From a virus (lineage: Duplodnaviria > Heunggongvirae > Uroviricota > Caudoviricetes): DNA of 64,000 bases. The number at the start of each line of letters is the position of its first letter. Position 1 is the stretch's first letter. Under the pieces are notes generated by a model that saw only the letters and a list, made by a program, of their open reading frames with translations, was not told where the DNA came from and searched no databases. The stretch lies in IMG/VR virus record IMGVR_UViG_3300045538_000409; one strand, 5' to 3'. The position numbers and the translations under genes are program-made. Shown piece after piece: positions 5,834-42,242 of the stretch.

Positions 5834-7558
5834 ATGAACAAAAATATAATTAAAAAACACTTAACTGAAACTTTCTTATCAGAAGATAAAAAACCAGATA
5901 GTTTAAGTAGTACTGAGAAAATTCAATCAGACTCTAAAAAAATAAATAGCGACAATCAAAACGAAGTTGCTAAAAAAATGAAAAGCTACGAAGAACCAAT
6001 CGAAGCTGAAACTGAACCTGTTAAATATAAAAATAACGAAGACCAACAAGAGTACCATGATGAAATGGAAATTATGAATGGTTTGGAAATGAATAGATTT
6101 GATAACGAACCAGCTAAACAGTTTAAAGAAAGAGCGGAAGAGGCTATTAGTGGCTCCGCAAGGATGGGTAATTCACCAGAATGGGCCAATGTTATTACTG
6201 CTGACCAAGCTGGTTTCACTGGACCTGAGTTTGGTAAAAACTTAGTTAAAAAAATTAAGTCATCTAAAGAAAAAAGAGATACTGCTGAAGCTAACAGAAA
6301 TCATAACAAAACTAGTGTTAGTGGTACTGACTTTAAAGATAGTGCTATGGGTAATAAAAACCCTAAAAGTATGGCGATAAGTGAAAATAAAAAAATAAAT
6401 GAAGGTCTTACTGAAAAGGGTCTTTTAACTTTAGGTAATTGGGTTAAAGAATTAGGTGCAGATAAAGCAGCTGTTAAATTAATCGATAAGGTTAGTGAAA
6501 CGGGTATAGTTTCATCTTTCCCAGATTCTATGGAATACGGCGAAGGCTTAAACATTGTGTCAAAACACTTAGCAAATGGTAAATATGATGCTGCTTATAA
6601 AAAAGCAAAATCATTAGCTAATAAATTAGAGAAAAAAGGTATGGGTGGTATGTTTGAAAATGTAAATGAAGGTAGACCATTCCAATTAGGTAAGGGTTAT
6701 ACTCATTTTGCGATATTTAAACTAGATGGTAAAATTGCAACTGGCTGGGATTATAAATCACTTTACGATAAACATGAAAAAGCTTACGATGATGAAAGTA
6801 TTAAAGAATATGCAAGACATGATATCGTGGATGATTTTCCAGATAACAAGTTAAGTGATTTCAAAATAGTTACCAGAGGTTATTTAGAAAAAAAGAACAT
6901 AGATATATCAGATTCTAATAATTGGTTTAAACCAAACATAAATAAAGATGATAATACAATAGAAATAAATGAAAGTATGAAAAGACTTGTATTTAAAAAA
7001 GAATTTAAGGGTGTTGAAAACGCATTAAGATTAATACCTGAATCTTATAAGGTTAATAATAAACAATTCCAAATGACTGATGGTAATGAGAAGTATGAAA
7101 TCAGATGGGAAGGAAATTTAACTGAAGGTAGAGCTATTATTACTAAGGCTTCTGACAAGAACCTTATGACTGAAGATATGCAAAAAATGAAACATCTTAT
7201 GGGTTATAAGTCTCAAGACACTCTTGGTATCATGAAGGGTCAAAATAGAATAGATGAAAATAAAGCGTTTGGTAAAATTTGGGATAAAACAAAAAATTTA
7301 TTAAATGAACAAATTGAAATAGATTCTACTAGTGATTTATATTCTAAATTTGGTGAAGATTATCCATATGCTAGCGATGCTGTTGCAAAATTTATATTCG
7401 GTTATAATGAAATTGATAATGAAATTGTTAATGCAATTAAAAATAACAAATTGGATGAATATGAATTAAGCGAATTTATGTTAGATTATGAATATTCGTG
7501 GGAAGAGAATATGGAAACAATAAATGATTATGTAAAAAATTTAATTAACAATAACTAA
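5834..7558 (+). CDS. hypothetical protein; C-terminal domain paralogous to the next gene; N-terminus MNKNIIKKHLTE is CTS-like
   Basis: 574-aa ORF. Residues ~390-500 (LIPESYKVNNKQFQMTDGNEKYEIRWEG...MKHLMGYKSQDTLG) align with the N-terminus of ORF 7560..8441. Confidence 0.55.
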   Translation: MNKNIIKKHLTETFLSEDKKPDSLSSTEKIQSDSKKINSDNQNEVAKKMKSYEEPIEAETEPVKYKNNEDQQEYHDEMEIMNGLEMNRFDNEPAKQFKERAEEAISGSARMGNSPEWANVITADQAGFTGPEFGKNLVKKIKSSKEKRDTAEANRNHNKTSVSGTDFKDSAMGNKNPKSMAISENKKINEGLTEKGLLTLGNWVKELGADKAAVKLIDKVSETGIVSSFPDSMEYGEGLNIVSKHLANGKYDAAYKKAKSLANKLEKKGMGGMFENVNEGRPFQLGKGYTHFAIFKLDGKIATGWDYKSLYDKHEKAYDDESIKEYARHDIVDDFPDNKLSDFKIVTRGYLEKKNIDISDSNNWFKPNINKDDNTIEINESMKRLVFKKEFKGVENALRLIPESYKVNNKQFQMTDGNEKYEIRWEGNLTEGRAIITKASDKNLMTEDMQKMKHLMGYKSQDTLGIMKGQNRIDENKAFGKIWDKTKNLLNEQIEIDSTSDLYSKFGEDYPYASDAVAKFIFGYNEIDNEIVNAIKNNKLDEYELSEFMLDYEYSWEENMETINDYVKNLINNN

Positions 7559-20032: not shown

Positions 20033-20403
20033 GGGGCTGACATTGGAAATTGATTATTAAACGATTCTAATTGTAAGGAAGTAGTGTTAAATGGAAACAC
20101 TTTAATAACCTATTAATACTTTTAAATGACAACGAATTTAACGTTGAACAAAACTTCCTTGAAACTTCAATAGTTGAAGTATATAAAGGAGAGGTAGCAT
20201 TAGCCTAATTCGAGTAATGTATTTGTGGTAAAACCACACAACACACCAATACTAAGGTGTTAAAATAGTAAATATGGATTACTACACACCATATAAACAA
20301 CGTAGTAGATTTTTTGGAAAGTTTTTTATAAAAACTATGACCTAAACTTCTAGAAATCATTTAAAACTTTAATAAGATTTGAGTTCGAATCTCAACAGCT
20401 CCA
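20033..20403 (+). ncRNA. ssrA: tmRNA (ssrA), one-piece, CCA not encoded
   Basis: 5' end GGGGCUGACAUUGG and 3' end GAUUUGAG-UUCGAAU-CUCAA-CAGCUCC-A. The acceptor pair GGGGCUG/CAGCUCC is identical to E. coli ssrA, and the T-arm is canonical. A promoter (TTGACA 19970 plus TATATATTTG 19991) lies upstream. A candidate tag ORF starts at ~20127 and ends ...GEVALA-UAA at 20207-20209. Confidence 0.75.
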
Positions 20404-20435
20404 CGAATATTACTTTTTATCATTTTATGTAAAAA

Positions 20436-20624
20436 ATGAACTATAATAATAAATTTAAAACAAATAAAATGAAAAACATTTTTATTTTAATTTTTGCAGT
20501 AATTTTGGTTTCATGCTCTTCAAAAAGTGGTGCAACTGAAGAAAACGTAACTAATGACAGTACAGTTGTGTCAGTTGATACAACAGTAGTTACACCTGCA
20601 GAAGTTGATTCTACCGTTAAATAG
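20436..20624 (+). CDS. small lipoprotein
   Basis: Lipobox ILVSCSS. The start may be the internal MKNIF. Confidence 0.4.
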   Translation: MNYNNKFKTNKMKNIFILIFAVILVSCSSKSGATEENVTNDSTVVSVDTTVVTPAEVDSTVK

Positions 20625-20648
20625 TAACATAATATTATTTATCATTTA

Positions 20649-20676
20649 AAACCCACAAATTTGTGGGTTTTTTTAT
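20649..20676 (+). terminator. intrinsic terminator
   Basis: AACCCACAAA-TTTGTGGGTTTTTTT. Confidence 0.75.
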
Positions 20677-20704
20677 TAAAATACTTTACATTTTAATTTT
20701 TTAT

Positions 20705-20715
20705 CAGTATATTTG
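20705..20715 (+). promoter_or_regulatory. promoter motif CAGTATATTTG upstream of FKBP gene
   Basis: Recurrent motif. Confidence 0.4.
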
Positions 20716-20740
20716 TTTTATAAATTTTTAAATACAAATT

Positions 20741-21187
20741 ATGATAACACAAAACAGTAAGGTAAGTGTACATTACACTGGTCGTTTTAAAAATGGTGAA
20801 ATCTTTGATTCTTCTATGCCAGTTGAAGGTGATGAATTATTTACAGAAGGTAGAGAACCAATTGAAGTTGAATTAGGTAAAGGAATGCTTATTCCAGGCT
20901 TTGAAAAAGCGTTACAAGGTATGTCTGAAGGTGAAACCAAGACAGTAACAATTAATCATCAAGACGCATATGGTCCAATAAAAGATAACTACTTCCAAGA
21001 AGTAGATAAACAACAAGTACCAGAAGATATTACAGTTGGAGCTATGCTACAAGCCGAAAATGAACTTGGTCAAGTTATGCAAGTAACAGTTAAAGAAATT
21101 AAAGATAATACAGTAATACTTGACGCTAACCATCCGTTAGCTGGCGAGGATTTAACTTTTGATTTAAAAGTTGTTGCTGTACATTAG
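20741..21187 (+). CDS. FKBP-type peptidyl-prolyl cis-trans isomerase (SlyD/FkpB-like)
   Basis: VHYTGRFKNGEIFDSS...GMLIPGFEKALQGMSEGE is a typical FKBP domain with an IF-type insert. Confidence 0.85.
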   Translation: MITQNSKVSVHYTGRFKNGEIFDSSMPVEGDELFTEGREPIEVELGKGMLIPGFEKALQGMSEGETKTVTINHQDAYGPIKDNYFQEVDKQQVPEDITVGAMLQAENELGQVMQVTVKEIKDNTVILDANHPLAGEDLTFDLKVVAVH

Positions 21188-21223
21188 TAATGATTATTAT
21201 TATTAATTATTTGTTTTTTTCAA

Positions 21224-21250
21224 AAGACCCTCTATTTAGAGGGTTTTTTT
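21224..21250 (+). terminator. intrinsic terminator
   Basis: ACCCTCTA-TT-TAGAGGGTTTTTTT. Confidence 0.75.
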
Positions 21251-21286
21251 ATTATTTAAATAATATTTATTAATAAACAAATAATT

Positions 21287-21577
21287 ATGAAAGAATTCTT
21301 TTTAAAATTAATCCAATCCGACTCTAAAGAAAGTAGTAAACGATTTTTATCGATTTATATTGTTTGCTTTTTAGGTTTAATAATTACTATTGTATCGTTA
21401 TTCAATGGTGTTGATTATATTTTCTTGTTAGGAACTTGGCTAGCATTTGTTGCAACATTACTAGGTCTTAGTGAATATAATAAAAATGTTAAGGAAAAAT
21501 ATTCTGCCGATATTGAAAAAGAGAGAATAAGAACGTTAAAAAACGAACAAAAGGAAGAAGTAGAAGAAATTAACTAA
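21287..21577 (+). CDS. hypothetical membrane protein
   Basis: 96-aa ORF with two TM helices. Confidence 0.4.
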   Translation: MKEFFLKLIQSDSKESSKRFLSIYIVCFLGLIITIVSLFNGVDYIFLLGTWLAFVATLLGLSEYNKNVKEKYSADIEKERIRTLKNEQKEEVEEIN

Positions 21578-21642
21578 TTAAAAACGGAAAGGTAGTCAGG
21601 AAAACCTGACCCTTACCTATTTTGTAGGCTTACTACCAGTAT

Positions 21643-21676
21643 TATTAGTATTAGTATTAGTGTTAGTGTTAGTGTT
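21643..21676. repeat. tandem hexanucleotide repeat (TATTAG)3(TGTTAG)2.5
   Basis: Seen directly in sequence. On the minus strand it encodes (NT)n inside a 33-aa ORF (21617..21718). Confidence 0.7.
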
Positions 21677-21861
21677 TGCAGGTTTATTATTACCCTTGTT
21701 TTTACATAGACATCCCATTGTGATTTTTTTTTAGTTTTGTTATTATAAATTATCTAATAATAAATATCTATTTAAAATAAAATAGTTTAATCAACATTGA
21801 TTTTATAAGAAAAAATGTTTATATTTGTTTATATTTATTATAAAATTAATATAACTAAAGA

Positions 21862-22056
21862 ATGATAAAAGTAAAGATTATAGATGGTAATATTGAAAAA
21901 GCTTTAAAAACGTTAAAAAGAAAAGTTTCAAATATCAAACAAAATAGAGAACTTTCTGAACGAAAAGAATATATAAAACCAACAACTAAAAATAGAGAAT
22001 TAAAGAAAAAAGCTATTTACTGTGAACGAAAAATAAGAGATAATGATGAAAATTAG
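21862..22056 (+). CDS. rpsU: 30S ribosomal protein S21
   Basis: MIKVKIIDGNIEKALKTLKRKVSNIKQNRELSERKEYIKPTTKNRELKKKA, compared with bacterial S21 ...[23 protein letters not shown]. Confidence 0.75.
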   Translation: MIKVKIIDGNIEKALKTLKRKVSNIKQNRELSERKEYIKPTTKNRELKKKAIYCERKIRDNDEN

Positions 22057-22282
22057 TTTATTTAAAAAAACCTCAGTAACTCTATTAGATGAGAAATGGA
22101 ACGTACTTAAAAGTAATGTTAAATTCAAATTCATACCAAGAATATACGAGTTAATTTACTTGAGTAGTGAAAATGGTTATTATAGAGTAGTTAATGTTGT
22201 ATATAATATTGATAACAATGTGGACACTTATGTTGTTATAGAGAAATATACTGATGATTTTAAATTAATTGAAAAAAAATAA
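22043..22282 (+). CDS. hypothetical protein
   Basis: 79-aa ORF. Confidence 0.4.
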   Translation: MMKISLFKKTSVTLLDEKWNVLKSNVKFKFIPRIYELIYLSSENGYYRVVNVVYNIDNNVDTYVVIEKYTDDFKLIEKK

Positions 22283-22427
22283 TAAAAGACTTGACAAACT
22301 AAAAATAATATACTATATTTGAGTATAGTTTCATTTAAATACGGAAATACTAAAGAAAGGGTTCAGCAACTTTTAACTTCGCTTGTAATACGAAAAAAAC
22401 CTTTCTGACTTTTCCAAAAAAAATATA

Positions 22428-22515
22428 CGGCGAGATAGTGTAATTGGTAACATGCTACACTCATAAGCTAGAGAAGTGGTAACATCATGTTGTTGGTTCG
22501 ATTCCAACCTTCGCA
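22428..22515 (+). tRNA. aberrant type-II tRNA-like element (CAU-like anticodon loop, long extra arm)
   Basis: Canonical T-arm GTTGG-TTCGATT-CCAAC and D-arm GTGT-AATTGGTA-ACAT. The acceptor stem pairs only at positions 2-6 (GGCGAGA/CTTCGCA), and the anticodon stem is 3 bp with loop CTCATAA. A terminator follows at 22522. Confidence 0.35.
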
Positions 22516-22521
22516 CAATTA

Positions 22522-22554
22522 AAAACCTTAAGGATGTTCTTAAGGTTTTTTTTA
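22522..22554 (+). terminator. intrinsic terminator after tRNA-like element
   Basis: AACCTTAAG-GATGTT-CTTAAGGTTTTTTTT. Confidence 0.75.
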
Positions 22555-22588
22555 TTTGTATATTTGTGAAAATATTTGTATATTTGTG
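22555..22588 (+). promoter_or_regulatory. tandemly duplicated promoter motif (2 x TTTGTATATTTGTG) upstream of dNMP kinase
   Basis: Copies at 22555-68 and 22575-88, forming a 20-nt direct repeat. Confidence 0.45.
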
Positions 22589-22603
22589 GAAAATATAAAT
22601 AAC

Positions 22604-23263
22604 ATGAATAAAAACGATTTAAAAAGCTCCCAACTTTCCAAGAGAATCCGACTTATCGGTGTGTCGGGTAAACTGGGAAGCGGTAAGGATACGTTTGCTG
22701 AGTTATTAGCTAAACAATTAGCAGGTAAAGTTGAAAGACATGCTTTAGCTGACAATTTAAGATTAATAACTGAAATTATTAGCGGTATTAGAATGACTAC
22801 AACACATGAAATAGATGAACCATTTTGTAATGAAATTCGTAATTATACTCAAGACCAAAAAAACATACTAATTAAACAGTTCGATAAGACTATTGGTGAA
22901 ACATTACAGTTAGTAGGTACTGAATTATTTAGAAATAATTACGATACTGACGTATGGGTTAAATCTTTATTTAGTGAAGAAATCTACGATAAAATGAATG
23001 ATGGTAAAATTATTATAATACCTGACGTTAGATTTATTAATGAAGCTGATTATATCCTTCAGGAAGGTGGCTATTTAATCAGAATGGAAGGTGACCCTGC
23101 TGGTGTTAGAGAAAATAGCTTACGTGACTTAAATCACTTATCTGAAACCAATCTAGATAACTATACCAAGTTTGATAAGGTTATAATTAATAACAAAAAA
23201 GATATAAATGAGTTGAAGCGTGTGGTAAATGATTTAATTGTTGAATTAAAATTAAACGAATAA
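22604..23263 (+). CDS. deoxynucleoside monophosphate kinase (T4 gp1-like)
   Basis: P-loop GVSGKLGSGKDT. Its blocks DVWVKSLF, IIIIPDVRF and HLSETNL are collinear with T4 dNMP kinase (SGVKRSGKDT, MYWVKLF, YYIVPDTRQ, HITEAGL). Start set at MNKND downstream of a tandem promoter motif. Confidence 0.75.
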   Translation: MNKNDLKSSQLSKRIRLIGVSGKLGSGKDTFAELLAKQLAGKVERHALADNLRLITEIISGIRMTTTHEIDEPFCNEIRNYTQDQKNILIKQFDKTIGETLQLVGTELFRNNYDTDVWVKSLFSEEIYDKMNDGKIIIIPDVRFINEADYILQEGGYLIRMEGDPAGVRENSLRDLNHLSETNLDNYTKFDKVIINNKKDINELKRVVNDLIVELKLNE

Positions 23264-26220: not shown

Positions 26221-27018
26221 ATGAAAAATTTAATAAAAAGATTATTAAGAGAAGGATTGGAAGAAGTTAAATTATTTGAAACTCTTTTAGGTGAAGTTAC
26301 AAGCAAATTAGACTTCTCATCATTTAAGATGAACGACACACTTAACCCTGAGGTATGGGTTGATGAAAATACTATTGACCCAGAGATACAAAAAAATCTT
26401 TTAAAAATTGCTAAGGATTATTACAGTGAATTAAAATTAGATATTCCTATATTAGATATTACACTTACAGGTTCATTAGCCAATTATAATTGGTCAAAGT
26501 ATTCTGATATTGATTTACATATTATATTTGATGCAAATGAATTAGGTGAGGATAAGGATATGATTAAGGATTTATTGGATATTAAGACTAGAGCATGGAA
26601 CCTTAAACATGATATTAAGGTTAAAGGATTTGATGTGGAATTATATCTTCAACCAGAAGACCAACCACATCACTCAACTGGTGTTTATTCATTATTAAAT
26701 GATGAGTGGGTAACAGAACCAGAAAGAGTTGATGTGAATTTAGATAAAGAAACAATCACAAAAAAATATAATTCAATAATTAAATCTATTGAAGAAATTC
26801 AAAAAGATATGGATGAAGATAAGTTTGACTACGTTGTTAAACAACTAGATAAATTAAAAGAAAGAATTAAGAAGATGAGACAAAGTGGTTTGGATAGTGG
26901 TGGTGAATTTTCTAGTGAAAATATAGTATTTAAACTTCTTAGAAGAAATGATATAATGAAAAAGATTGACGATATGTTAGTGAAAGCATACGATAAATCA
27001 GTTAGCTTAGACCAATAA
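26221..27018 (+). CDS. nucleotidyltransferase-fold protein (Pol-beta superfamily) with CTS-like N-terminus
   Basis: LTGSLANYNWSKYSDIDLHIIFD matches the GS-x(9-13)-DxD minimal nucleotidyltransferase motif. N-terminus MKNLIKRLLREGL. Confidence 0.55.
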   Translation: MKNLIKRLLREGLEEVKLFETLLGEVTSKLDFSSFKMNDTLNPEVWVDENTIDPEIQKNLLKIAKDYYSELKLDIPILDITLTGSLANYNWSKYSDIDLHIIFDANELGEDKDMIKDLLDIKTRAWNLKHDIKVKGFDVELYLQPEDQPHHSTGVYSLLNDEWVTEPERVDVNLDKETITKKYNSIIKSIEEIQKDMDEDKFDYVVKQLDKLKERIKKMRQSGLDSGGEFSSENIVFKLLRRNDIMKKIDDMLVKAYDKSVSLDQ

Positions 27019-28337
27019 TGAAAGGATTAATTAAAACGCTTTTAAGGGAATATTTTCTAAATGAAAATAACGAATCAATTAATTATGAAATAGAACATTT
27101 GGGCAGCCATAATGGACAACATGATTATGAATTAGGTATGTATATTAATGGTGATATAGTTGGTTTAGCTCAATATACACTATATAATAATGAATTAACC
27201 ATTTCAGATATATTCGTTAGACCTGAAATGCGAAGAAGGGGTTATGGTTCTAGAATTATAGCATTTTTAAAAAAAGAATATCCAGAATACCAATATCAAC
27301 CTTCAATGAAAACTGATTTAGGTTCTAAATTCATACATAAAGACGTAAATCCGTATCAAGATTTAAACGAAGACACTTTTAATGTCTTAGAGTCTGAATT
27401 ACAAGAAGAAGTTACTTCTTCATTTACAGCCTATCATGGTTCACCAACTAAGATAGAAAGTTTTGTTGATGAATTTGTTGGTGGAAAAGACGCTACAGAC
27501 CAAAATGGACCTGGTATATATTTTACAACTAAGGTTGAAGAAACATATGGCTACGCTGAACGGGGTTATGTTTATCATGTTGAAATCGCTAATAGTAAAT
27601 TCTTAGATAGTATAGAACGTTCAGAAGGTTATTTAAGAAAATATAGAGGTGACGTTAAGAAACTAATTATGATGGCACCCGACTGGGAGATGGATGCTCA
27701 AAACTGGGCTGTAAACCCAAAAGAAGGACTTAATATGATGGTGGATAATTTCGTACAATACAATTCAAATGAGAAAGACGTATTCCTACAAGTTTGGATT
27801 GATGTATATAGGGGTATTGAAGTGCAGTTTGTAAGAAACATGGTCAAATTAGGATATGGTGGGTTGCTTATTAATGGTGGTTTTAATAGTGATAATGGTG
27901 GTGACCATATAGTAGTATATAACCCAGGGCTAATAACAATTAGTAAAGTAGAGTTTTTTGGTGATAAATCAATGAACGAACAAATAATATTACCTATAAT
28001 GAAAAACATGGAAAAAGCGCCAAATATGGGGAGTAAATTCGGTCAAGACGTAGAACCAAGTGGCACATATGTGTCTCATGATGATAGGAAAAATAAAACG
28101 CCAATAGATAATTATAAGTTAGGAAAAGTAACATTCAATAACCCACTTATAATAGATATAACTGATGATACAATCATTACTTATAAAAACAAATTAAGTC
28201 AACAATTTAAAGCTAAAGGTAAAAACCTTACTAATAAATTAATGGAAAAAGGTTATGATGGGTTAATTACTAGATGGCCCGATGGTAATTATAATGAACT
28301 GATATTATTCCCAAATAGTAAATATTACTTAAGTTAA
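27018..28337 (+). CDS. GNAT N-acetyltransferase domain fused to PARP/diphtheria-toxin-like (H-Y-E class) ADP-ribosyltransferase-like domain; CTS-like N-terminus
   Basis: GNAT motif A at VRPEMRRRGYGSRIIAFL. Downstream, FTAYHGSPTKIESF...GPGIYFTT parallels the PARP1 NAD-binding signature WHGSRTTNFAGIL...GKGIYFAD. N-terminus MKGLIKTLLRE. Confidence 0.55.
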   Translation: MKGLIKTLLREYFLNENNESINYEIEHLGSHNGQHDYELGMYINGDIVGLAQYTLYNNELTISDIFVRPEMRRRGYGSRIIAFLKKEYPEYQYQPSMKTDLGSKFIHKDVNPYQDLNEDTFNVLESELQEEVTSSFTAYHGSPTKIESFVDEFVGGKDATDQNGPGIYFTTKVEETYGYAERGYVYHVEIANSKFLDSIERSEGYLRKYRGDVKKLIMMAPDWEMDAQNWAVNPKEGLNMMVDNFVQYNSNEKDVFLQVWIDVYRGIEVQFVRNMVKLGYGGLLINGGFNSDNGGDHIVVYNPGLITISKVEFFGDKSMNEQIILPIMKNMEKAPNMGSKFGQDVEPSGTYVSHDDRKNKTPIDNYKLGKVTFNNPLIIDITDDTIITYKNKLSQQFKAKGKNLTNKLMEKGYDGLITRWPDGNYNELILFPNSKYYLS

Positions 28338-28374
28338 TAGTAAAGCTAATTAATTTGTATATTTAAAAACTTTT

Positions 28375-28385
28375 TACTATATTTG
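28375..28385 (+). promoter_or_regulatory. promoter motif TACTATATTTG upstream of CCA-adding enzyme gene
   Basis: 5 nt before the ATG at 28391. A second TTTGTATATTT lies at 28354. Confidence 0.4.
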
Positions 28386-28390
28386 TAATT

Positions 28391-29557
28391 ATGAAACAAA
28401 TAATTAAAAAAATGGTTAAACAAAAGTTACTTAAAGAAGAGAGGATAAAGTTAAATATACCTATTCCTGATGACATAATACAAATTAAAGATATATTCGT
28501 CAATAACGGATATAAGTTATATATTGTGGGTGGTTCTGTACGTGACTCATTACTTAACAAACCTATTAAGGATTACGATTTAGCTACTGACGCAACACCA
28601 GACCAAGTTGAAGATATAATGAATAAATCTGGTTTTAAAACACTACCAACTGGTAAAGCATTTGGGGTTATAAATGTGTTTACAGATACTAATGAATACG
28701 AAGTGGCCACGCTTAGGTCAGATGGGGAATATACAGATTCAAGGAGACCTGACTCAGTAACATTCAGCGATATAAACTCAGATGCAGCCAGAAGAGACCT
28801 GACATGTAACGCTTTATATTATGATATAGATACCAAGGAAGTCATTGACTTAGTTGGTGGTATAAATGACCTTAGAAAAGGTATAATACGAACTGTAGGT
28901 AAACCAGAAGATAGATTTAAAGAGGATAAGTTAAGAATTCTAAGAAGTATTCGTTTTGCGGGTAGATTTGGTTCAGAATTGGACCCCAACATTGATAAAG
29001 TATTAAGTAATGACAGTAGTCTTAAAGGTATATCACCTGAAAGGATTAGAGATGAGTTCTTAAAGACGATTAAAAGTGCTAAGAGCATACAACAAGTATT
29101 TTTATTAATTGATAAATATAAATTATGGAATGAAATTTTTCCAGGTATTGATATCAATAAGAAGTTTGTTGAATCCAAAGACCCAATTATTGTTATCAGT
29201 ACCCTTATATTAGGTAACGAACCATCGAACTTAAGTAAGATTTTAAATAAATTAACATATTCAATAAGTGAAAATAAAGCTATTACTTTTTTAATTTCAT
29301 TTAGTACATTTAACGATATAAACAATGTGTACAAGATGAAGAAACTATTTAACGCTTCAAATGTTACTAATGAACAATTAAGAGAATTTAATAATATTAA
29401 TAAAATCTTACCAAGTAATGTCGTTGACACATTTATTAATTTCCAACTTAGCGTTACTGGCGACCAAGTTCAAAGTGAATTAGGAATTAAACCAGGACCA
29501 GAAATGGGTAAAACTATTGAAAAAATGGAAATTGATAACTTTAATAAACTTTTATAA
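28391..29557 (+). CDS. cca: tRNA nucleotidyltransferase (CCA-adding enzyme), with N-terminal CTS-like extension
   Basis: Head-domain motifs LYIVGGSVRD, DYDLATDA, RRD(L)TCNALYYD and ATLRSDGEYTDSRRPD. N-terminus MKQIIKKMVKQKLLKE precedes the catalytic core. Confidence 0.8.
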   Translation: MKQIIKKMVKQKLLKEERIKLNIPIPDDIIQIKDIFVNNGYKLYIVGGSVRDSLLNKPIKDYDLATDATPDQVEDIMNKSGFKTLPTGKAFGVINVFTDTNEYEVATLRSDGEYTDSRRPDSVTFSDINSDAARRDLTCNALYYDIDTKEVIDLVGGINDLRKGIIRTVGKPEDRFKEDKLRILRSIRFAGRFGSELDPNIDKVLSNDSSLKGISPERIRDEFLKTIKSAKSIQQVFLLIDKYKLWNEIFPGIDINKKFVESKDPIIVISTLILGNEPSNLSKILNKLTYSISENKAITFLISFSTFNDINNVYKMKKLFNASNVTNEQLREFNNINKILPSNVVDTFINFQLSVTGDQVQSELGIKPGPEMGKTIEKMEIDNFNKLL

Positions 29558-29577
29558 TATTTATATTTAAAAAACAT

Positions 29578-30258
29578 ATGAGAAGATTTGATAAAAATTT
29601 AAACATACAAAAAGCTAACCTATTAGCCGAACAAAGATACCTTGAGTCAAAGGAATTGTTAAAGGAAGAATCAATGAATTTAATAAAAGAAGAACAATTT
29701 ACAGATTTATTCAAATTCATAGCCCAAGACCCCAAGAAAATGACACAAGGTAGTGCTTATTATGTGGCAGACCTAAATTCTTCAATGAATAAAAACATTG
29801 TTGATGATGATGGTAATAAAATACCTAATCCTATGTACGGTAAATTATATAAACACACTAGATTCTTATTTAAATGGGAAGATACCTACTTAAAAGCTAT
29901 GGACAGAGTAGACCCAGAACATATCGCTGGTAAAAGAAGTGGTAATTACGAGAAAGTACAAGGTTATGATGTATTAGAAACAGGTAAAAGCGGTCTATAT
30001 TTACCAATAATACCAACTGGTAGTGAATATCAATATGTTGTCGATAACAATGGCAATATGGAGGTAATCGACAAAGAAACTGTTAAGAAATACTTAAGAC
30101 CAATGTCACCATCAACTATTTCCGCAACAGAAGCTGGTAAACCACTATTTAGACCACTTATTATTGATAAGGTGGCTAAAATAACTGGTGGTGGTAATGT
30201 TTGGAAAAATCCTAACTTTAAAGGTGTATATATGGGACCAGGTTCAACTACTAATTAA
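29578..30258 (+). CDS. hypothetical protein
   Basis: 226-aa ORF. Confidence 0.45.
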   Translation: MRRFDKNLNIQKANLLAEQRYLESKELLKEESMNLIKEEQFTDLFKFIAQDPKKMTQGSAYYVADLNSSMNKNIVDDDGNKIPNPMYGKLYKHTRFLFKWEDTYLKAMDRVDPEHIAGKRSGNYEKVQGYDVLETGKSGLYLPIIPTGSEYQYVVDNNGNMEVIDKETVKKYLRPMSPSTISATEAGKPLFRPLIIDKVAKITGGGNVWKNPNFKGVYMGPGSTTN

Positions 30259-30521
30259 TATTAAATTATTTACCTGAATATCAACTAGTTATAAATTAAT
30301 TAAAAAATAATTTTAAAATTTACTTGTATTATTAAACTTTTTATCATATATTTGTATATATATATTAATTAAAGAAGTAACAAAAAAAATGAAAACAATT
30401 AACATACATATGATTTGGAATAGTAATTCGAGACGTATTAGTCTAGACGAATCAGGTATGTTTATTCAAAAATTCATGTAAATAATTATAACAGAATAAA
30501 AAAGAATAATAGAAAAGATAC

Positions 30522-30556
30522 AAAGCCTGAATTTATAAATTCAGGCTTTTTTTATT
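30522..30556 (+). terminator. intrinsic terminator
   Basis: AGCCTGAATTTA-TA-AATTCAGGCTTTTTTT. Confidence 0.75.
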
Positions 30557-30565
30557 TAATAAATT

Positions 30566-30754
30566 ATGGAAAATAACGAAAAGAAAATTAAAATACTTGG
30601 TACCGAAAATCTAAACGAATTAGAAAAGGGTGCAACTAATCTATACACTAAGTATAGCAAGATTGCTGAAGCATTAGGTTTGTATGGAAAAATTGGTTTT
30701 AAGAAGGAAAATGATAAAATTATCTTTTACGTAAGTAAGGATAATGGAGAGTGA
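30566..30754 (+). CDS. hypothetical small protein
   Basis: 62-aa ORF. Its stop lies inside an 8-bp closing stem of a structured 3' element. Confidence 0.4.
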   Translation: MENNEKKIKILGTENLNELEKGATNLYTKYSKIAEALGLYGKIGFKKENDKIIFYVSKDNGE

Positions 30755-30841
30755 ACTGGTCAGGGCACCAGGCTTCCCTGCTAAGGAATGCGTGCATTAT
30801 TGCATTGGCTTCGATTGCTACACTCTCCGCTTTTTTTTTTG
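30746..30841 (+). other. structured 3' element closed by 8-bp helix GGAGAGTG/CACTCTCC + U-tract
   Basis: The helix arms are at 30746-53 and 30821-28. Internal hairpins are CTGGT-CAGGGC-ACCAG and TGCA-TTAT-TGCA. The stop codon of ORF 30566..30754 lies inside the 5' arm. Confidence 0.45.
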
Positions 30842-30868
30842 TAAAATTACTAAATATTAAAAAAAAAT

Positions 30869-30879
30869 TAGTATATTTG
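30869..30879 (+). promoter_or_regulatory. promoter motif TAGTATATTTG upstream of Pnk-2H gene
   Basis: Exact recurrent 11-mer. Confidence 0.45.
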
Positions 30880-30894
30880 TAAAAAATAAAATAA

Positions 30895-31842
30895 ATGAAG
30901 AGTAATATAAGAAAAATCTTAAGGGAAAATGTTAATACTAATGTATTAGGTATAACGATTACAAGACCAAATCAAGAATTGATTGTAATGGTAGGAATTC
31001 CTGGTAGTGGAAAATCTACAAAAGCTAAAGAATTGGTTGGTAATGGTCAAATTTTTTCAACTGATGATAGAATTGAATCACAAGGTGATTATTTAGAGTT
31101 TTTTAACAAAATGATTAATTCTAAGGATTTCACACCATTAAGTAATATGCACAACTTGAATTTCACAATGGCAAAAAAAGCCATGAAGACAGGTACAACT
31201 CCAGTAATTATTGATAACACTAATTTATCACCATCTGAATCTAAGAAATATGTTGAAGAAGCCTTATTATTAGGATATGCTGATGATAATATTAAATTTA
31301 TTGAAATTGGTACTGGTGGTTTATCGGCTGAAGAATTGGCAAATAGAAACACTCATGGTGTTCCGCTGGACAAAATTCAATCAATGATTCAAAAATATAA
31401 TTCACATAAACCAATGACTCTTAATAAAGTTTTAAATTCAAAATCAATTGATAATAAAAAAACTAACTTAATTGCTAGTTTAGTATTAGATGATACATCG
31501 CACGATAAATTAATTAAACTAGTAAAGGATTACATCCCTAAAGGTTGGAAAGTTTTTGCACATCATATGACTATTAATTTTGGGAATGGGTTACCTGAAA
31601 ATCTTAAGAGTGATTTAGGTAAAGTTAAATCTATTACTGCAACTGAGATTGGCGTTTCTGATATGGCTATAGCGGTAAGGGTTGAAGGATATCATTCGGA
31701 TAACAAAATTCCTCATATTACTATAGCGGTTAATGTGGCAGAAGGTGGTCGCCCTGTAATGTCTAATAATATTACTAATTGGAGCAAATTAGAAAATAAA
31801 ATTAATCTATCTGGAGTCATTTCTGAAGAAAAATTGAATTAA
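30895..31842 (+). CDS. polynucleotide 5'-kinase (T4 Pnk-like) fused to 2H-family cyclic phosphodiesterase; CTS-like N-terminus
   Basis: P-loop IVMVGIPGSGKST. Blocks VIIDNTNLSPSE and HGVPLDKIQSMIQKY are collinear with T4 Pnk (GCPGSGKST, VIISDTNLNPERR, VPIDVLRSMYKSM). The C-terminus has two H-x-T motifs (HHMTI, HITIA), a 2H phosphoesterase signature. N-terminus MKSNIRKILRE. Confidence 0.75.
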   Translation: MKSNIRKILRENVNTNVLGITITRPNQELIVMVGIPGSGKSTKAKELVGNGQIFSTDDRIESQGDYLEFFNKMINSKDFTPLSNMHNLNFTMAKKAMKTGTTPVIIDNTNLSPSESKKYVEEALLLGYADDNIKFIEIGTGGLSAEELANRNTHGVPLDKIQSMIQKYNSHKPMTLNKVLNSKSIDNKKTNLIASLVLDDTSHDKLIKLVKDYIPKGWKVFAHHMTINFGNGLPENLKSDLGKVKSITATEIGVSDMAIAVRVEGYHSDNKIPHITIAVNVAEGGRPVMSNNITNWSKLENKINLSGVISEEKLN

Positions 31843-34207: not shown

Positions 34208-35008
34208 ATGAAAAAAGTAATTTATTTAGCAATGGCAATCTTTGGGTTATCATTGACATCATGCGAAACAGTATCTCCAGGACACAAGGGTGTGGAAATT
34301 TCTTGGGGTGGTGAGACAAATTTACAAACAACTTATAATGAAGGTATGGCAACTGGTCTACACTGGATTTGGGATGAAATGGTAGAGTACGATGTTAGAC
34401 AAAAAACGCTAGTTGAAAAGTTTGAGTTTAACGACAACAACAACATGACAACTAATGTGGAAATATCGTTAGATTATAACTTAAATCCTGATAAGGTAAC
34501 TTTGTTACATACTCAGATTAGTGATATTGAGACAAAAATCCTCAAGACACTTAAGTCAGCAGGTAAGGAAGTTGTTCCACAATATTCGGCAGTTGAATTG
34601 AATATTACTAAGAGGCAAGAAGCGGAAGATAAACTTAACGCAATCCTTGCTAGGGAATTACCAGAATTCTATGTTCAATTAGCGAGAGTTCAAATGACTG
34701 ATGTTGACATCCCACCAGCAGTAGCTAAATTAGCTGAAGAAACAGCAGTTCAACTTGGTAGAAATGAATTAGCAACTAAGAAAGAAGCTGAACAAAAGTC
34801 ATTAGCTAAGGCTAAGGTAGCAACAGCACAAGGTAATTTTGACGCTGGTATTCTAGATGCTAAGACTAAGGAGTTATTGTCTAAACCAGAATTACTTAAG
34901 TTGAAAGAATTAGAGGTTGATATGGAATACGCTAAAAAAGGTGTTTCAAAATATGGAACTAACAATGTCTTTGGTGGTAATGGTGCAACTGTCATTAAAG
35001 GTTTATAA
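34208..35008 (+). CDS. SPFH/band-7 (prohibitin/HflKC-like) domain lipoprotein
   Basis: Lipobox LSLTSC, then VSPGHKGVEISWGG...VEYDVRQKT, typical of the SPFH domain start. Confidence 0.6.
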   Translation: MKKVIYLAMAIFGLSLTSCETVSPGHKGVEISWGGETNLQTTYNEGMATGLHWIWDEMVEYDVRQKTLVEKFEFNDNNNMTTNVEISLDYNLNPDKVTLLHTQISDIETKILKTLKSAGKEVVPQYSAVELNITKRQEAEDKLNAILARELPEFYVQLARVQMTDVDIPPAVAKLAEETAVQLGRNELATKKEAEQKSLAKAKVATAQGNFDAGILDAKTKELLSKPELLKLKELEVDMEYAKKGVSKYGTNNVFGGNGATVIKGL

Positions 35009-38979: not shown

Positions 38980-40095
38980 ATGGAACTAAACATCGTTAAA
39001 CATATAAAAAAATATGGTCTAGAAAAGGCCATTATTGATTTTGATTTAATATGCAAGGAGAATGGCAATCTTATATTACTTAAATACAATCAAATATCCT
39101 CTCCAATGGACAAAATAGAGGTTCAAGAATCTAGAGGTTTAATATTAGAAAAAGGTACATATAAGGTTATTTCAATGGCCTTTATGAAATTTTTCAATCA
39201 TGGTGAAACTAACGCAGCAAATATTGACTGGGACTCAGCGCATGTTTTAGATAAATTAGATGGGTCGCTACTTTCTTTATATCATTATAATGACACTTGG
39301 AATGTTTGTACAACAGGAACCATTAATGGTGAAGGTGAAGTTAATAATAAATATGGAACTACATTTAGAGATTTGTTTTGGGGTACAATAAATAGTAAAT
39401 ATAATTTCAATATTAATAAATTAAATAGTGACTATATATATGCTTTTGAATTAACGACACCTTATAATATTGTTGTTAAACCACATAGTGAATCATCCGC
39501 AACACTTCTTACAATTAGAAATAGAGAAAATCTTAAAGAAATACCTTATAATGAGTTAATTCCAGTTGCCAATGAATTAGGTGTACCTTTAGTTAAAAGG
39601 TATGATTTTAACATTAAAAATGTTGATGTTTTAATTAAGACTTTTGAAAATATGCCATGGTCAGAGGAAGGTTATATTGTTTTAGATGGTAACTTTAGTA
39701 GAATTAAGATAAAAAATCCAGCATATGTTGCGGTTCATTTATTAAAAAATAGAACATCAGAACATTCAATAATGGAAATTGTTAAGTCTAATGAAATTGA
39801 AGAGTTTGCATCAACATTTATAGAGAGAAGAGAAGAGATTTATAATCTTCATAAAAACTATAATGAATTAATTAATAAATTAGAAAATATATGGAAATTG
39901 CTTGAACCATTAAAACCAAAAGACATATCTCCAGAAGAAAAAAAGAGGTATGCTATGGAAGTCTTTAGAGTATGTGAAGAAAATGATATTAAGATGTTTA
40001 CAGGACTTTATTTTGGTTTAAACGATGGTAAAATTGAATCTATTGGTGAATATATGATGAATTATGATAATAAAAGATTATATCAAATTTTATGA
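38980..40095 (+). CDS. ATP-dependent RNA ligase (Rnl family)
   Basis: Nucleotidyltransferase motif I KLDGS, motif IV EGYIVLDG and motif V RIKIKNPAY. Confidence 0.75.
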   Translation: MELNIVKHIKKYGLEKAIIDFDLICKENGNLILLKYNQISSPMDKIEVQESRGLILEKGTYKVISMAFMKFFNHGETNAANIDWDSAHVLDKLDGSLLSLYHYNDTWNVCTTGTINGEGEVNNKYGTTFRDLFWGTINSKYNFNINKLNSDYIYAFELTTPYNIVVKPHSESSATLLTIRNRENLKEIPYNELIPVANELGVPLVKRYDFNIKNVDVLIKTFENMPWSEEGYIVLDGNFSRIKIKNPAYVAVHLLKNRTSEHSIMEIVKSNEIEEFASTFIERREEIYNLHKNYNELINKLENIWKLLEPLKPKDISPEEKKRYAMEVFRVCEENDIKMFTGLYFGLNDGKIESIGEYMMNYDNKRLYQIL

Positions 40096-40916
40096 ACCAA
40101 ATATATAAAATTTTCAAACAATATAAATATAAATTATTATTAATTTATTTATTTATGTTAGTAACTGAGTTAGCTATAGTTACACAACCATATTTACTTG
40201 GTAAAAGTATTGATGGTTTAATATCTGGAGATACATCGTGGACCTTATTACTCTTTATCTCATTTGTAACATCTCAATTTTTTATGTATAAAAGAATGGT
40301 ATATGATACTAAGATATATAAAAAAATATATAATGATATTGTTATTGATTTCTTGAAAAAATCAAAAGATGATTATTCAATAAAAATAGCAAGAACTGAT
40401 ATGGCTAATGATATTGTTGGTGTGCTAGAAGGATATGTTCATTATTATATATCAATTATAATTACTATTGTAGGTTCAATAGGTTTTATATACTTAGAAA
40501 ATTGGAGAGTAGGTTTATTAGTTACTACATCATTTATATTCATAGTCCTAAGTGTTTTATTGTTCTATAAGAAAATAAGACAAAGTATTAACATTAGAAA
40601 TAATAATTATGAAAATAAAGTTAAGGCTATACAATCAGGTTACGAAAAATCAGTATCCTTCTTACATCGACAACGCAAAATAGAAATTATTGAATCAAAC
40701 CTACAAGGTAAAAACTGGTTCTCCGTTGGTATAATAAAATCTATATTTTTAATATTATCTATTATAACACTAATTTTTACTAGTGAAAATGTTACAGCAG
40801 GTAGTGTAATTACAATATATACATATATTAATAATTTCTTAATATCACTAATGTCCATACCAGTAGCATTTGAAATGTACTCAAGATTAAGTGATATAAT
40901 TAAAAGACTTTGTTAG
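40092..40916 (+). CDS. polytopic membrane protein
   Basis: 274-aa ORF with about 6 TM helices. Confidence 0.45.
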   Translation: MNQIYKIFKQYKYKLLLIYLFMLVTELAIVTQPYLLGKSIDGLISGDTSWTLLLFISFVTSQFFMYKRMVYDTKIYKKIYNDIVIDFLKKSKDDYSIKIARTDMANDIVGVLEGYVHYYISIIITIVGSIGFIYLENWRVGLLVTTSFIFIVLSVLLFYKKIRQSINIRNNNYENKVKAIQSGYEKSVSFLHRQRKIEIIESNLQGKNWFSVGIIKSIFLILSIITLIFTSENVTAGSVITIYTYINNFLISLMSIPVAFEMYSRLSDIIKRLC

Positions 40917-41652
40917 TGTTAAACATCTCTTTACCTAATAAACCTTCTCTGTACATTCTGCGTTTAAGATTTTTAATCCAATTATTTCTTTCACTGTACG
41001 GTAGTTCATTGTAAATAACGTATAATGTTGGGGACATATGGATTAATTCGTCAAATGATAATAAATCCCACAAGTCCTCATTTTTCCGTTTTAACTGTAT
41101 AATGTTATGTATTTGTGCTTGTAATTCTAAATGATGTGTATTTATATGTTTAATTGGTTTAGACATATTGAAAAATTTTTCAATATGTCTATTATGAAAT
41201 GAATCATCTAACCAATGTGCTAATTCATGATGAATACTACCTTTAATTTTTTCCTCAGTGAATTCCTGCATAAAGCTTTTACCTAGAGAAACTGGTAAGT
41301 TTTCTTTTGCTTGTTTTAAATTTCCATTATAATCAAAGGCGTAGTTAAAAGCATTAAAATTAATTGATATTGATATTAATTGTTCAGACGGTCTATAAAA
41401 ATTATTACCATAATTTATTTTTATTTTACAAGGGTTAATTTTATTTGCCTTTAAAGTCAATTCATCAGTAAATACATCGGTGGTTGATATATACTGTTTA
41501 AACATATCTTTTCTAACAAACCCAGTGCTATTAATTTCATTAATATTGTTTTTGAAATATGCGTCATAAATATAATCTACGTCATGATTAATATTCATAA
41601 CCTTTTCTGTTAAAAGTGATTCCCTAACTAATTTTTTAATTAATGATTTCAT
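40900..41652 (-). CDS. zincin-like metallopeptidase-motif protein (HExxH) with CTS-like N-terminus (minus strand)
   Basis: Minus-strand ORF MKSLIKKLVRESL...SIHHELAHWLDD, with an HExxH motif. Confidence 0.5.
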   Translation of the reverse strand: MKSLIKKLVRESLLTEKVMNINHDVDYIYDAYFKNNINEINSTGFVRKDMFKQYISTTDVFTDELTLKANKINPCKIKINYGNNFYRPSEQLISISINFNAFNYAFDYNGNLKQAKENLPVSLGKSFMQEFTEEKIKGSIHHELAHWLDDSFHNRHIEKFFNMSKPIKHINTHHLELQAQIHNIIQLKRKNEDLWDLLSFDELIHMSPTLYVIYNELPYSERNNWIKNLKRRMYREGLLGKEMFNTNKVF

Positions 41653-41690
41653 TCTTTTTATTTATAAATATTTGTTTTTTGTAATAAAAT

Positions 41691-41701
41691 TAGTATATTT
41701 G
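41691..41701 (+). promoter_or_regulatory. promoter motif TAGTATATTTG
   Basis: Exact recurrent 11-mer, in the divergent region between the minus gene 40900..41652 and the + gene at 41717. Confidence 0.45.
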
Positions 41702-41716
41702 TGAAAAATATAAATT

Positions 41717-41947
41717 ATGGCAAACGCAAAAATTAGTAATAAGGTATTCAGACTAAAGAGAGCTGGAACATTTAATTTACCAGGTATACCTGACCCAGTT
41801 ACATTTGATAATGGAGAAGAATTTCACATAATTGGAGATGTTCTTTATATGAAAGGATTTCTAGTACCAGGTAATTTACAACATCCAATAATTAATTGGA
41901 TTGTAAATAATAAAATATTATTTGTTGAAGACACAAGGAACTTTTAA
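41717..41947 (+). CDS. hypothetical protein
   Basis: 76-aa ORF downstream of a promoter motif. Confidence 0.4.
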   Translation: MANAKISNKVFRLKRAGTFNLPGIPDPVTFDNGEEFHIIGDVLYMKGFLVPGNLQHPIINWIVNNKILFVEDTRNF

Positions 41948-41955
41948 AAATAACC

Positions 41956-42237
41956 ATGATGGAGAAAAAAATAAAAACGTTTGAAGATAAATTGACCATT
42001 GCTTCAATTAAAGAAAAGGAAATTAATTTTAAAACAAAAATTCCTAGTGAAATTAAACAAGGTGAGATTGAGAAGACGATTGACTCAATAAACACTTTAC
42101 GTTATTTATTGGAAGGTTACACGTTTGATGCTGATACTACTATTTTGAATAGTGAACCAAAATATAAAACAATATTAACGGAGGAAGAAACTTATGTTGT
42201 AAAAGAAAAGTTATTTGAATTAATAAAAAAATTATAA
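41956..42237 (+). CDS. hypothetical protein
   Basis: 93-aa ORF. Confidence 0.4.
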   Translation: MMEKKIKTFEDKLTIASIKEKEINFKTKIPSEIKQGEIEKTIDSINTLRYLLEGYTFDADTTILNSEPKYKTILTEEETYVVKEKLFELIKKL

Positions 42238-42242
42238 TAAAT

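Follow-up and report, generated by a model that had tools for sequence, protein, structure and literature searches.

Does a tmRNA-like locus directly downstream of a ClpP gene in an uncultivated phage encode a genuine transfer-messenger RNA (tmRNA), and, if so, which peptide does it append to the products of stalled ribosomes and what might read that peptide? The locus lies in a 64,000-nucleotide (nt) stretch of Caudoviricetes DNA, IMG/VR record IMGVR_UViG_3300045538_000409, to which we refer as the window. Phage tmRNAs and long noncanonical tags are already known; in the literature, we found no description of this tmRNA family, its comparatively validated tag, or the fixed DnaJ-ClpP-tmRNA-FKBP synteny in which it stands. 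Comparison of related sequences argues that the locus is a genuine, selected, phage-encoded, one-piece tmRNA gene of Bacteroidota ancestry carrying a tag of 26 codons, a reading to which we give a probability of about 0.8.

The complete one-piece tmRNA (ssrA) gene occupies 371 nt up to its discriminator A (Table 1), and ARAGORN calls a tmRNA at 20033-20404 (+). In a local search of this region alone, Rfam model RF00023 aligned over model positions 1-374 to 20033-20406 (E = 4.3e-11), with high posterior probability at both termini. A first-pass annotation, made from the letters of the window alone, had described a complete tmRNA gene of 371 nt with the 5′ end GGGGCUG, the 3′ end UUCGAAU-CUCAA-CAGCUCC-A, and a T-arm. 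All of these are read in the sequence, and the ARAGORN call, the end-to-end Rfam match, and the covariation within the family described below identify a complete phage gene and no attachment-site remnant.

Relatives were gathered by a ClpP-anchored search of IMG/VR, which returned 80 related loci. In 22 of these, ARAGORN located a tmRNA 3′ of ClpP, at distances between a few hundred and ~1,800 nt. An nhmmer profile built from the called tmRNAs, used in place of a full-length covariance model (alignment of 405 columns), added eight members that ARAGORN had missed. Profile scores range from 164 to 307 bits among family members, with 192 bits for the window copy. The tmRNAs missed by ARAGORN (L009, L013, L014, L016, L020, L021, L024, and L025) are detected by both Rfam and the nhmmer profile; because they make up 8 of ~30 family loci, surveys that rely only on ARAGORN probably undercount phage tmRNAs. 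Of the 33 loci whose ClpP is closest, about 30 have a tmRNA on its 3′ side.

The secondary structure was obtained with RNAalifold from 19 distinct family members, and stem 2 of pseudoknot 1 (PK1), in which [G/A]AU(U)GG in the loop pairs with CUAU[C/U], was added by eye. Three near-identical assemblies of the phage yield no covariation data because their tmRNAs are 100% identical. Unguided, RNAalifold recovered the acceptor stem, the T-arm, the long helix 2, and the first PK1 stem. Over the whole structure, 96.0% of alignment cells were paired, compared with 40-50% in controls in which the partners were slid by 1-3 columns. Pairs changed on both sides numbered 28, as opposed to 5-10 in the slid controls, and the covariation score was 0.381, as opposed to at most 0.086. 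None of 500 shuffles reached any of the five observed pairing measures. The G3-U70 alanine identity pair is invariant in 19/19 family sequences, and the discriminator A stands at 20403. Helix 2 takes the place of an anticodon arm and links the tRNA-like part of the molecule with the domain that holds the mRNA-like segment and the pseudoknots; across alignment helices 2-5, compensatory changes occur in 12 of 18 pairs, which are 89-100% paired. Helix 5 (at least 4 bp) is present in 22 of 25 members, where its loop contains the final codon of the tag and the stop codon. Its third pair covaries, being A-U in 15 members and U-A in 8; in this switch, the synonymous third base of alanine codon 24 changes along with its partner. 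In the 3′ domain, two compact pseudoknots as good as those found by stem enumeration occurred in only 2 of 1000 dinucleotide shuffles, and L009 and L019 have pseudoknots that match the first 3′ site in position and geometry with different sequences. Together, these data show that the window RNA has the canonical acceptor stem, T-arm, long helix 2, PK1, and helix 5 of a tmRNA, and they suggest a structured 3′ pseudoknot domain.

The tag frame opens with a GAC resume codon at tmRNA nt 96 (window position 20128) and encodes 26 residues ending VALA; with the tmRNA-borne alanine, the appended peptide would have 27 residues. Its family consensus is [D/G]-N-x-[F/L]-x-[V/I]-x-x-N-F-L-x-x-x ... G-E-[V/L/M]-A-[L/V/F/Y]-A, and the locus whose ClpP is closest to that of the window (L009) encodes DNEFDIDKNFLETSQVEEFSGEVAFA. 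Only two indels fall within the frame, each exactly 3 nt long, whereas indels elsewhere in the alignment have arbitrary lengths. Summed column entropy at codon positions 1, 2, and 3 is 16.6, 13.6, and 24.9, respectively. Synonymous variation occurs at codons 2, 3, 7, 9, 11, and 14, all upstream of nt 144, and over codons 1-17 the ratio of nonsynonymous to synonymous polymorphism (pN/pS) is 0.52 in the tag frame but 1.02 and 1.12 in the other two frames. In all members, the resume codon has G as its first base; it follows PK1 at a distance of 13 nt and is preceded by an invariant A at position -4, which corresponds to E. coli A86. In a joint alignment, the phage GAC/GGC shares a column with the Bacteroidota GGC resume codon (window, AAAU|GAC AAC GAA; Algoriella, AACU|GGC AAC GAA), and the consensus resume region of RF00023 falls on UGACAACGA with high posterior probability. 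No other frame of the window RNA ends in an Ala-terminal hydrophobic peptide. For 12 relatives, ARAGORN itself gives collinear tags of 25-26 residues starting at nt 93-95. Purifying selection acts on the tag peptide from end to end, and this selection, together with the invariant N-F-L and G-E-x-A-x-A motifs, implies that something specific reads it.

A frame of 26 codons from near nt 95 ending VALA is what the first-pass annotation had proposed, and the indels, third-position variation, pN/pS values, and Bacteroidota alignment uphold it. Its comparison of the first codons with E. coli ANDENY fares less well, the Bacteroidota G-E/N-x-x-Y-A-x-A-A tags being the apter reference and homologous at the first codons. 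When ARAGORN and the covariance model were run, neither placed the resume codon elsewhere with an ALAA tag. The canonical A-L/V/M-A-A end is absent: the window tag ends V-A-L-A, and the family ends A-[L/V/F/Y]-A. A hydrophobic A-x-A-A end is typical of most tmRNAs without strictly defining them, and exceptions are documented (PMC4131195). Inside the frame, UUCC at 20155-20158 and GGAG at 20188-20191 (tmRNA nt 123-126 and 156-159) are identical in all members at the nucleotide level, even at third codon positions. RNAalifold predicts that the two pair, and their invariance leaves no covariation; they could be a helix around codons 11-21, a Shine–Dalgarno-like element, or a strict peptide requirement.

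The PK1 signature of the family, when scanned over one genome per bacterial species, matched almost only Bacteroidota. One-piece tmRNAs of this phylum (Bacteroides, Algoriella, and Chitinophagaceae ssrA) resemble the phage RNA in length (355-395 nt) and architecture and share the PK1 signature GUAAGCAUGYAGUG...CACUUWAAU and the 3′ motif CUAARCAUGUAGAAAGC. Their resume codon likewise lies at nt 95-99 with A at -4, the first phage codons (G/D-N-E/D) being homologous to GGC AAC GAA; CCA is usually unencoded, and the promoter is of the TAnnTTTG type. The tags differ. Bacteroidota tags have 9 residues (GENNYALAA, GNTQYAMAA, and GNEEYALAA) and end Y-A-[L/M/I]-A-A, whereas the phage tag has 25-26 codons, about three times as many, and ends A-[L/V/F/Y]-A. 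The central regions cannot be aligned, and the phage gene differs further in adjoining ClpP. The PK1 signature, the promoter, a shared leader, and kinship with megaphages suggest that the phage infects Bacteroidota and that its ssrA gene was captured from this phylum long ago.

The promoter and the leader lie immediately upstream. The promoter noticed from the letters alone is present as a sigma-70-like TTGACA-17-TATATT and is overlapped by a match to the Bacteroidota -7 consensus TAnnTTTG, which occurs within 80 nt upstream in 16 of 23 family members (~0.1 expected). The related motif TAGTATATTTG is found 19 times on the plus strand of the window, compared with 5.75 expected, mostly just upstream of genes; sites include 20705, 22311, 28375, 30869, 32401, 41691, 50292, and 63195. 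This motif, of the Bacteroidota -7 type, is apparently a general promoter element of the genome region. A 14-nt leader, GTTCTTTAAWTTAT, is kept in 23/23 family members and has a single occurrence in the window. It also precedes the ssrA gene of a low-GC Bacteroidota metagenome-assembled genome (L093; CANHGM010000040.1, ~5893-5906). The leader is probably a precursor-processing or expression signal, such as a second promoter. We considered and rejected the idea that L093 is a mis-binned phage, as it has no proteins in common with the window and an ordinary bacterial tmRNA body.

At the 3′ end, the DNA after the discriminator A reads CGA, so that CCA is not fully templated. The first-pass annotation had linked this to a phage-encoded CCA-adding enzyme. 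Both observations stand, the gene for a CCA-adding-type enzyme lying at 28391-29557, but the argument is not specific to the tmRNA: CCA is likewise unencoded in 11/11 tRNA genes of the window and in 18/21 Bacteroidota ssrA genes whose 3′ ends were inspected. The missing CCA is a trait of the lineage and the genome.

The tmRNA is embedded in a conserved set of genes, with the order DnaJ - o143 - o82 - (o74) - ClpP - (o98) - tmRNA - (o148) - o79 kept in 24 loci. The phage ClpP matches solved ClpP structures (E = 1.5e-52) and Pfam CLP_protease (E = 2.5e-62), and its Ser-His-Asp triad is intact, the AASMG, MLHQ, and DRD motifs all aligning. The earlier identification of a phage-encoded ClpP, immediately upstream of the tmRNA, is therefore sound. 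DnaJ, ClpP, and FKBP form a conserved, predicted proteostasis cassette around the tmRNA. Feature coordinates are collected in Table 1.

Table 1. Features of the tmRNA gene and its cassette, by position in the window.
Feature	Position	Strand	Remarks
DnaJ	16566-17639	+	J domain, CXXCXGXG zinc-finger region, C-terminal domain; first cassette gene
o143	17908-18339	+	Between DnaJ and ClpP in nearly all family loci
o82	18339-18587	+	phrog_13182; between DnaJ and ClpP in nearly all family loci
Phage ClpP	18833-19570	+	Always upstream of the tmRNA in the family; N-terminal extension of ~50 residues
Intrinsic-terminator-like hairpin and T-run	19938-19953	+	Terminates the upstream open reading frame (ORF) o98; boundary to the transcription unit of the tmRNA
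Promoter	19970-20000	+	Sigma-70-like; TTGACA 19970-19975, 17-nt spacer, TATATT 19993-19998
TATATTTG	19993-20000	+	Matches Bacteroidota -7 consensus TAnnTTTG; overlaps TATATT
14-nt 5′ leader GTTCTTTAATTTAT (GTTCTTTAAWTTAT)	20019-20032	+	Abuts the mature 5′ end
tmRNA gene	20033-20403	+	C at 20404 could be the first C of CCA
Acceptor stem, 5′ strand GGGGCUG	20033-20039	+	Pairs with CAGCUCC 20396-20402; 7 bp; compensatory changes in pairs 5-7
Helix 2, 5′ strand segments	20054-20082	+	Partners within 20342-20378, including CUAAACUUCUAG at 20342-20353
Pseudoknot 1 (PK1)	20083-20114	+	Upstream of the tag frame
PK1 stem 1, AGUGUU / AACACU	20083-20088 / 20096-20101	+	90.4% paired; 3 covarying pairs
PK1 stem 2, AAUGG / CUAUU	20090-20094 / 20110-20114	+	90.5% paired; first pair alternates G-U, G-C, A-U
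Tag frame	20128-20208	+	Resume GAC 20128-20130; 26 codons DNEFNVEQNFLETSIVEVYKGEVALA; last codon GCC 20203-20205; stop TAA 20206-20208
Helix 5, GCAUUA / UAAUGU	20197-20202 / 20215-20220	+	Last tag codon and stop codon in the loop
Hairpin UGUGG / UAAAA / CCACA	20224-20238	+	Opens the 3′ pseudoknot domain; 3/3 pairs covary
H-type pseudoknot ACACC / GGUGU plus UACUA / UAGUA	20243-20270	+	Stem enumeration
H-type pseudoknot AUAUGG / CCAUAU plus UUACUAC / GUAGUAG	20272-20308	+	Stem enumeration
Terminal hairpin AGUUUUU / UAU / AAAAACU	20320-20336	+	Before the helix 2 3′ strand; 3/4 pairs covary
T-arm UUGAG / UUCGAAU / CUCAA	20379-20395	+	tRNA-like T-loop (GUUCGAAUC); 4/5 pairs covary; 100% of cells paired
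o148, FKBP-type peptidyl-prolyl isomerase	20741-21187	+	PF00254, E = 2.6e-18; immediately 3′ of the tmRNA

These elements suggest how the RNA would act. It would be transcribed from the Bacteroidota-type promoter and trimmed at the conserved 5′ leader, and CCA would be added after transcription by a host enzyme or by the phage's own CCA-adding-type enzyme. By analogy with established tmRNA biology, host alanyl-tRNA synthetase would charge the RNA through G3-U70, and SmpB would deliver it to ribosomes stalled on broken or nonstop mRNAs during infection. The ribosome would resume at GAC and terminate at UAA, leaving the rescued protein with a phage-specific C-terminal tag of 27 residues. In the most speculative step, the tag would mark products for a protease composed of the phage ClpP and an unfoldase or adaptor, and their degradation would keep ribosomes and amino acids for phage production. 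Because the gene is fixed in a DnaJ - ClpP - tmRNA - FKBP cassette, a protease built on the phage ClpP is the most likely destination of the tagged products; that the tag is coupled to this ClpP specifically is a tentative proposal, about which we lean toward doubt. A stronger version, in which the phage clade runs its own tag-and-destroy circuit separate from that of the host, with the tag read by a phage-ClpP-based protease, seems unlikely to us. Candidate partners of ClpP in such a circuit could be o143, o82, o74, o98, the ClpP N-terminal extension, or a host unfoldase. If such a circuit exists, products of stalled ribosomes go to the phage protease instead of host ClpXP, and the tags of 20-33 residues that ARAGORN reports in other tRNA-rich phages would be parallel cases.

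SmpB presents a question of its own, as it would be either host-supplied or encoded elsewhere in the phage. Among the ten ORFs flanking the tmRNA (17674-23263), none had a Pfam match to SmpB, ClpS, or SspB at E ≤ 1. The ORF o143 is SmpB-sized, occurs in every cassette, and has 30 homologues, all unnamed. It was rejected as SmpB: its predicted secondary structure is largely helical, unlike the SmpB beta-barrel, in an AlphaFold model that is itself poor (predicted local distance difference test score, 55.7). Foldseek returned weak matches of o143 to minimal zincin peptidases (E of at least 0.03), and it has AEEAI where those have HExxH.

Several observations weigh against a genuine tmRNA whose tag is read by a phage protease. 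The window copy scores 31.9 bits, under the RF00023 gathering score of 47, and was missed in a scan of the whole window. The central part of its Rfam alignment has low posterior probability, as has the region of the 3′ pseudoknots, whose one-to-one homology to canonical PK2-PK4 is uncertain. SmpB was not found in the 64-kb window by phmmer (six-frame ORFs, E ≤ 10) with an approximate E. coli SmpB query. The tag lacks the terminal A-A, which defines the ClpX degron in E. coli; it ends A-L-A in place of the degron L-A-A-COOH. Such an end may alter targeting to ClpXP, as the first-pass annotation had suggested. The sole ClpX-like ATPase of the window, an AAA+ protein of the ClpX/HslU clade (45581-46405 (+), 274 residues), has Walker A and B motifs but carries GTSG in place of the GYVG pore loop and has no IGF-type ClpP-docking loop. 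Its best match in the Protein Data Bank is ClpX, at a weak 54.6 bits, and it lies 25 kb from the tmRNA, just upstream of a tRNA cluster; with both loops missing we rejected it as ClpX, and the first-pass claim of a ClpX-like ATPase lacking the zinc-binding domain falls with it. Among related huge phages, LR745206, LR756502, LR756504, and Lak-C1 have no tmRNA beside ClpP (ARAGORN; Rfam at E ≤ 0.01). Finally, ClpP and tmRNA could be neighbors simply because they are expressed together as a proteostasis module, without tagged products being substrates of this ClpP. As to the Rfam score, the RF00023 output for the window copy, whose sequence has 30% GC, includes a bias term of 33.0 bits. The copy is counted as a tmRNA because it is homologous to family members that do pass the threshold; all 16 relatives tested exceed it, at 54.6-80.8 bits and over the full-length model. 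By this homology, it is an AT-rich and divergent representative of a genuine tmRNA family.

The low Rfam score would also suit a nonfunctional locus, namely a piece of host ssrA left at a prophage attachment site or host DNA mis-assembled into a phage contig, and many tmRNAs on viral contigs do carry host-identical tags (e.g. ANDENYALAA), probably from prophage borders. We find such an origin scarcely credible here. The gene is full length with both termini, sits among phage genes on one strand, and is kept on ~30 phage contigs with compensatory changes. The exact ClpP protein and an identical 6.7-kb stretch that includes the tmRNA recur in the independent assemblies SRR30127151 and ERR14789965, the ClpP also in ERZ27272073, and mis-assembly is therefore unlikely. 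Bacterial ssrA genes, moreover, match the phage profile at their two ends only, with 35-52 bits as opposed to 160-307 bits inside the family. If the gene is genuine, ARAGORN could still be right about its tag, which the program gives for the window as EVYKGEVALA, 10 residues resuming at GAA (tmRNA nt 144), with similar short calls for L022, L023, L026, and L027. We regard this as highly improbable and rejected the short tag. Its resume site would lie 61 nt after PK1 rather than 13, the codons ahead of nt 144 are under coding selection with 3-nt indels only, and the Bacteroidota resume codon aligns with nt 96. Among close relatives, furthermore, the resume site chosen by ARAGORN varies (nt 93-95, 108-114, or 144) and the frame is always the same. 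It is also possible that the RNA serves mainly as a regulator or decoy that competes for SmpB, alanyl-tRNA synthetase, or stalled ribosomes, or that senses host state, with tagging secondary. Titration of SmpB has been suggested for the ssrA of phage DS6A, which is reduced to the tRNA-like domain (PMC4131195); sensing of host state by phages via tmRNA is mentioned by Al-Shayeb et al. (PMC7162821); and the finding of no phage SmpB in the window is in keeping with such a role. We consider it very unlikely, since a decoy needs neither a conserved frame of 26 codons under amino-acid-level selection nor a helix 5 with the stop codon in its loop and a PK1 at canonical spacing.

A closer contest concerns what happens to tagged proteins once the 26-codon tmRNA is accepted. 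The RNA may be a functional rescue tmRNA whose tag is read by host proteases (ClpXP, ClpAP, Lon, FtsH, or Tsp), or which acts mainly in ribosome release, the ClpP neighborhood being a co-regulated chaperone and protease module. DnaJ and the FKBP isomerase in the cassette fit such a general proteostasis island; the analyses of the window identified neither a cognate unfoldase nor an adaptor, related megaphages keep ClpP without an adjoining tmRNA, and phage G encodes its tmRNA apart from its ClpXP (PMC12484599). What speaks for a dedicated reader is that the entire 26-residue peptide, with its invariant motifs, is under purifying selection, and that the position 3′ of ClpP is kept in nearly all loci with the closest ClpP. 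On balance, we judge a tag without a degron function of this kind to be rather unlikely, though far more plausible than a decoy, and we retain a genuine tmRNA with a selected 26-codon tag as the preferred reading.

Long tags that escape ClpXP have a bacterial precedent. Long ssrA tags of Mycoplasma, in work attributed to Gur and Sauer (2008), are reportedly degraded by Lon instead of ClpXP. The Mycoplasma tag has ~27 residues without the LAA-COOH ClpX degron and offers a precedent for a long tag redirecting substrates to another protease. The Mycoplasma case involves bacterial genomes without ClpXP, whereas in the window ClpP is encoded beside the tmRNA. Six other phage-context IMG/VR contigs (L005, L232, L236, L251, L256, and L263) have ARAGORN tags of 20-33 residues, such as AKNVIAYDFIPVEEEVLVVA and ANVELSTMTFEDAMAWMNSFDYAVAA, and, going by these calls, phage tmRNAs may in general tend to carry extended tags.

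Among phages, ssrA genes are documented in Bxz1-like mycobacteriophages and phage G (Hudson et al., PMC4131195), and Buchholz et al. counted 133 unique tmRNAs in 402 phages (PMC9004378). The tag of Bacillus phage G, AKLNITNNELQVA, has LQVA as its C-terminus, and the ClpXP genes of this phage lie at another place in its genome (PMC12484599). Like the window, phage G, the Bxz1-like mycobacteriophages, and the pelagiphage/Melnitz group have a complete ssrA in a lytic-type phage and a tag unlike that of the host; the window family differs from them in lineage and tag family and in its fixed synteny with ClpP, DnaJ, and FKBP. The pelagiphage and Melnitz tmRNAs are, in addition, two-piece, whereas that of the window is one-piece. 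Huge phages and megaphages (PMC7162821; Mar_Mega_1, PMC9723777) resemble the window as large uncultivated phages with many tRNAs and translation genes and with predicted Bacteroidota hosts. Huge phages carry tmRNA and SmpB (PMC7162821), and Mar_Mega_1 has one tmRNA (PMC9723777); both studies report presence only, from ARAGORN calls without analysis of tag, structure, or synteny. Mar_Mega_1 and the window have the same nearest relatives, LR745206 and LR756502.

The window has 28.6% GC, with nearly all genes on one strand, and encodes DnaJ, ClpP, a CCA-adding-type nucleotidyltransferase, an Rnl1-like RNA ligase, RlaP, genes for nicotinamide adenine dinucleotide salvage, and 11 tRNAs. By blastn, GenBank phages gave no match for the window tmRNA, its 24-kb surroundings, or two central family members, and the exact 3′-end pattern of the tmRNA had no match in viral contigs. 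By protein, the nearest GenBank records are the ~600-kb huge phages LR745206 (ClpP 59% identical), LR756502, LR756504, and LR756511 and the Prevotella Lak megaphages. Homologues of o143 in Tara Oceans data indicate that the phage lineage is at least partly marine.

Near the tmRNA, a small lipoprotein-like ORF at 20436-20624, with a signal peptide ending LVSC, precedes the FKBP gene. The gene for ribosomal protein S21 (21862-22056 (+); PF01165, in the identical contig L209) lies 1.5 kb 3′ of the tmRNA and is followed by a tRNA-Met gene. At 22429-22516 (+), a tRNA-Met gene is unusually long at 88 nt and has a marginal Rfam score (29.7 bits vs 29). Genes for tRNA-Met of 85-89 nt recur 3′ of the tmRNA in L013, L018, L026, and L039. 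RNA-repair and nucleotidyltransferase genes at 26221-31842 and 38980-45157 (+) encode an NTP_transf_2 protein, a GNAT/ART-PolyVal fusion, the CCA-adding-type enzyme, an AAA_33 kinase-like protein, the Rnl1-like RNA ligase, and RlaP; the cluster suggests a tRNA/RNA repair toolkit alongside the tmRNA. Elsewhere, a DUF805b RNA motif (RF02914; 34145-34180 (+), 40 bits with a gathering score of 35.6) lies just upstream of an SPFH/Band-7 gene (34208-35008), and a 478-residue protein (13262-14698 (+)) contains DUF2828 (E = 3e-33) and DUF7788 (E = 3e-54).

Phage tmRNAs usually appear as one line of ARAGORN output, in which the resume codon can be misplaced, as the three start sites among close relatives illustrate. 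Routine annotation also misses such genes altogether, ARAGORN having passed over 8 of ~30 members and the Rfam gathering threshold the AT-rich window copy. Comparative analysis recovers a conserved tag that is three times the host-type length, has another C-terminus, and is encoded in a fixed gene order together with ClpP, DnaJ, and FKBP genes of the phage. Should this tag prove to be a degron specific to the phage, the locus would offer a concrete, testable case in which a virus rewires the protein quality control of bacteria, and Bacteroidota genetics could gain an extra degradation tag. Otherwise, the locus stays a cleanly defined member of the translation toolkit of huge phages.

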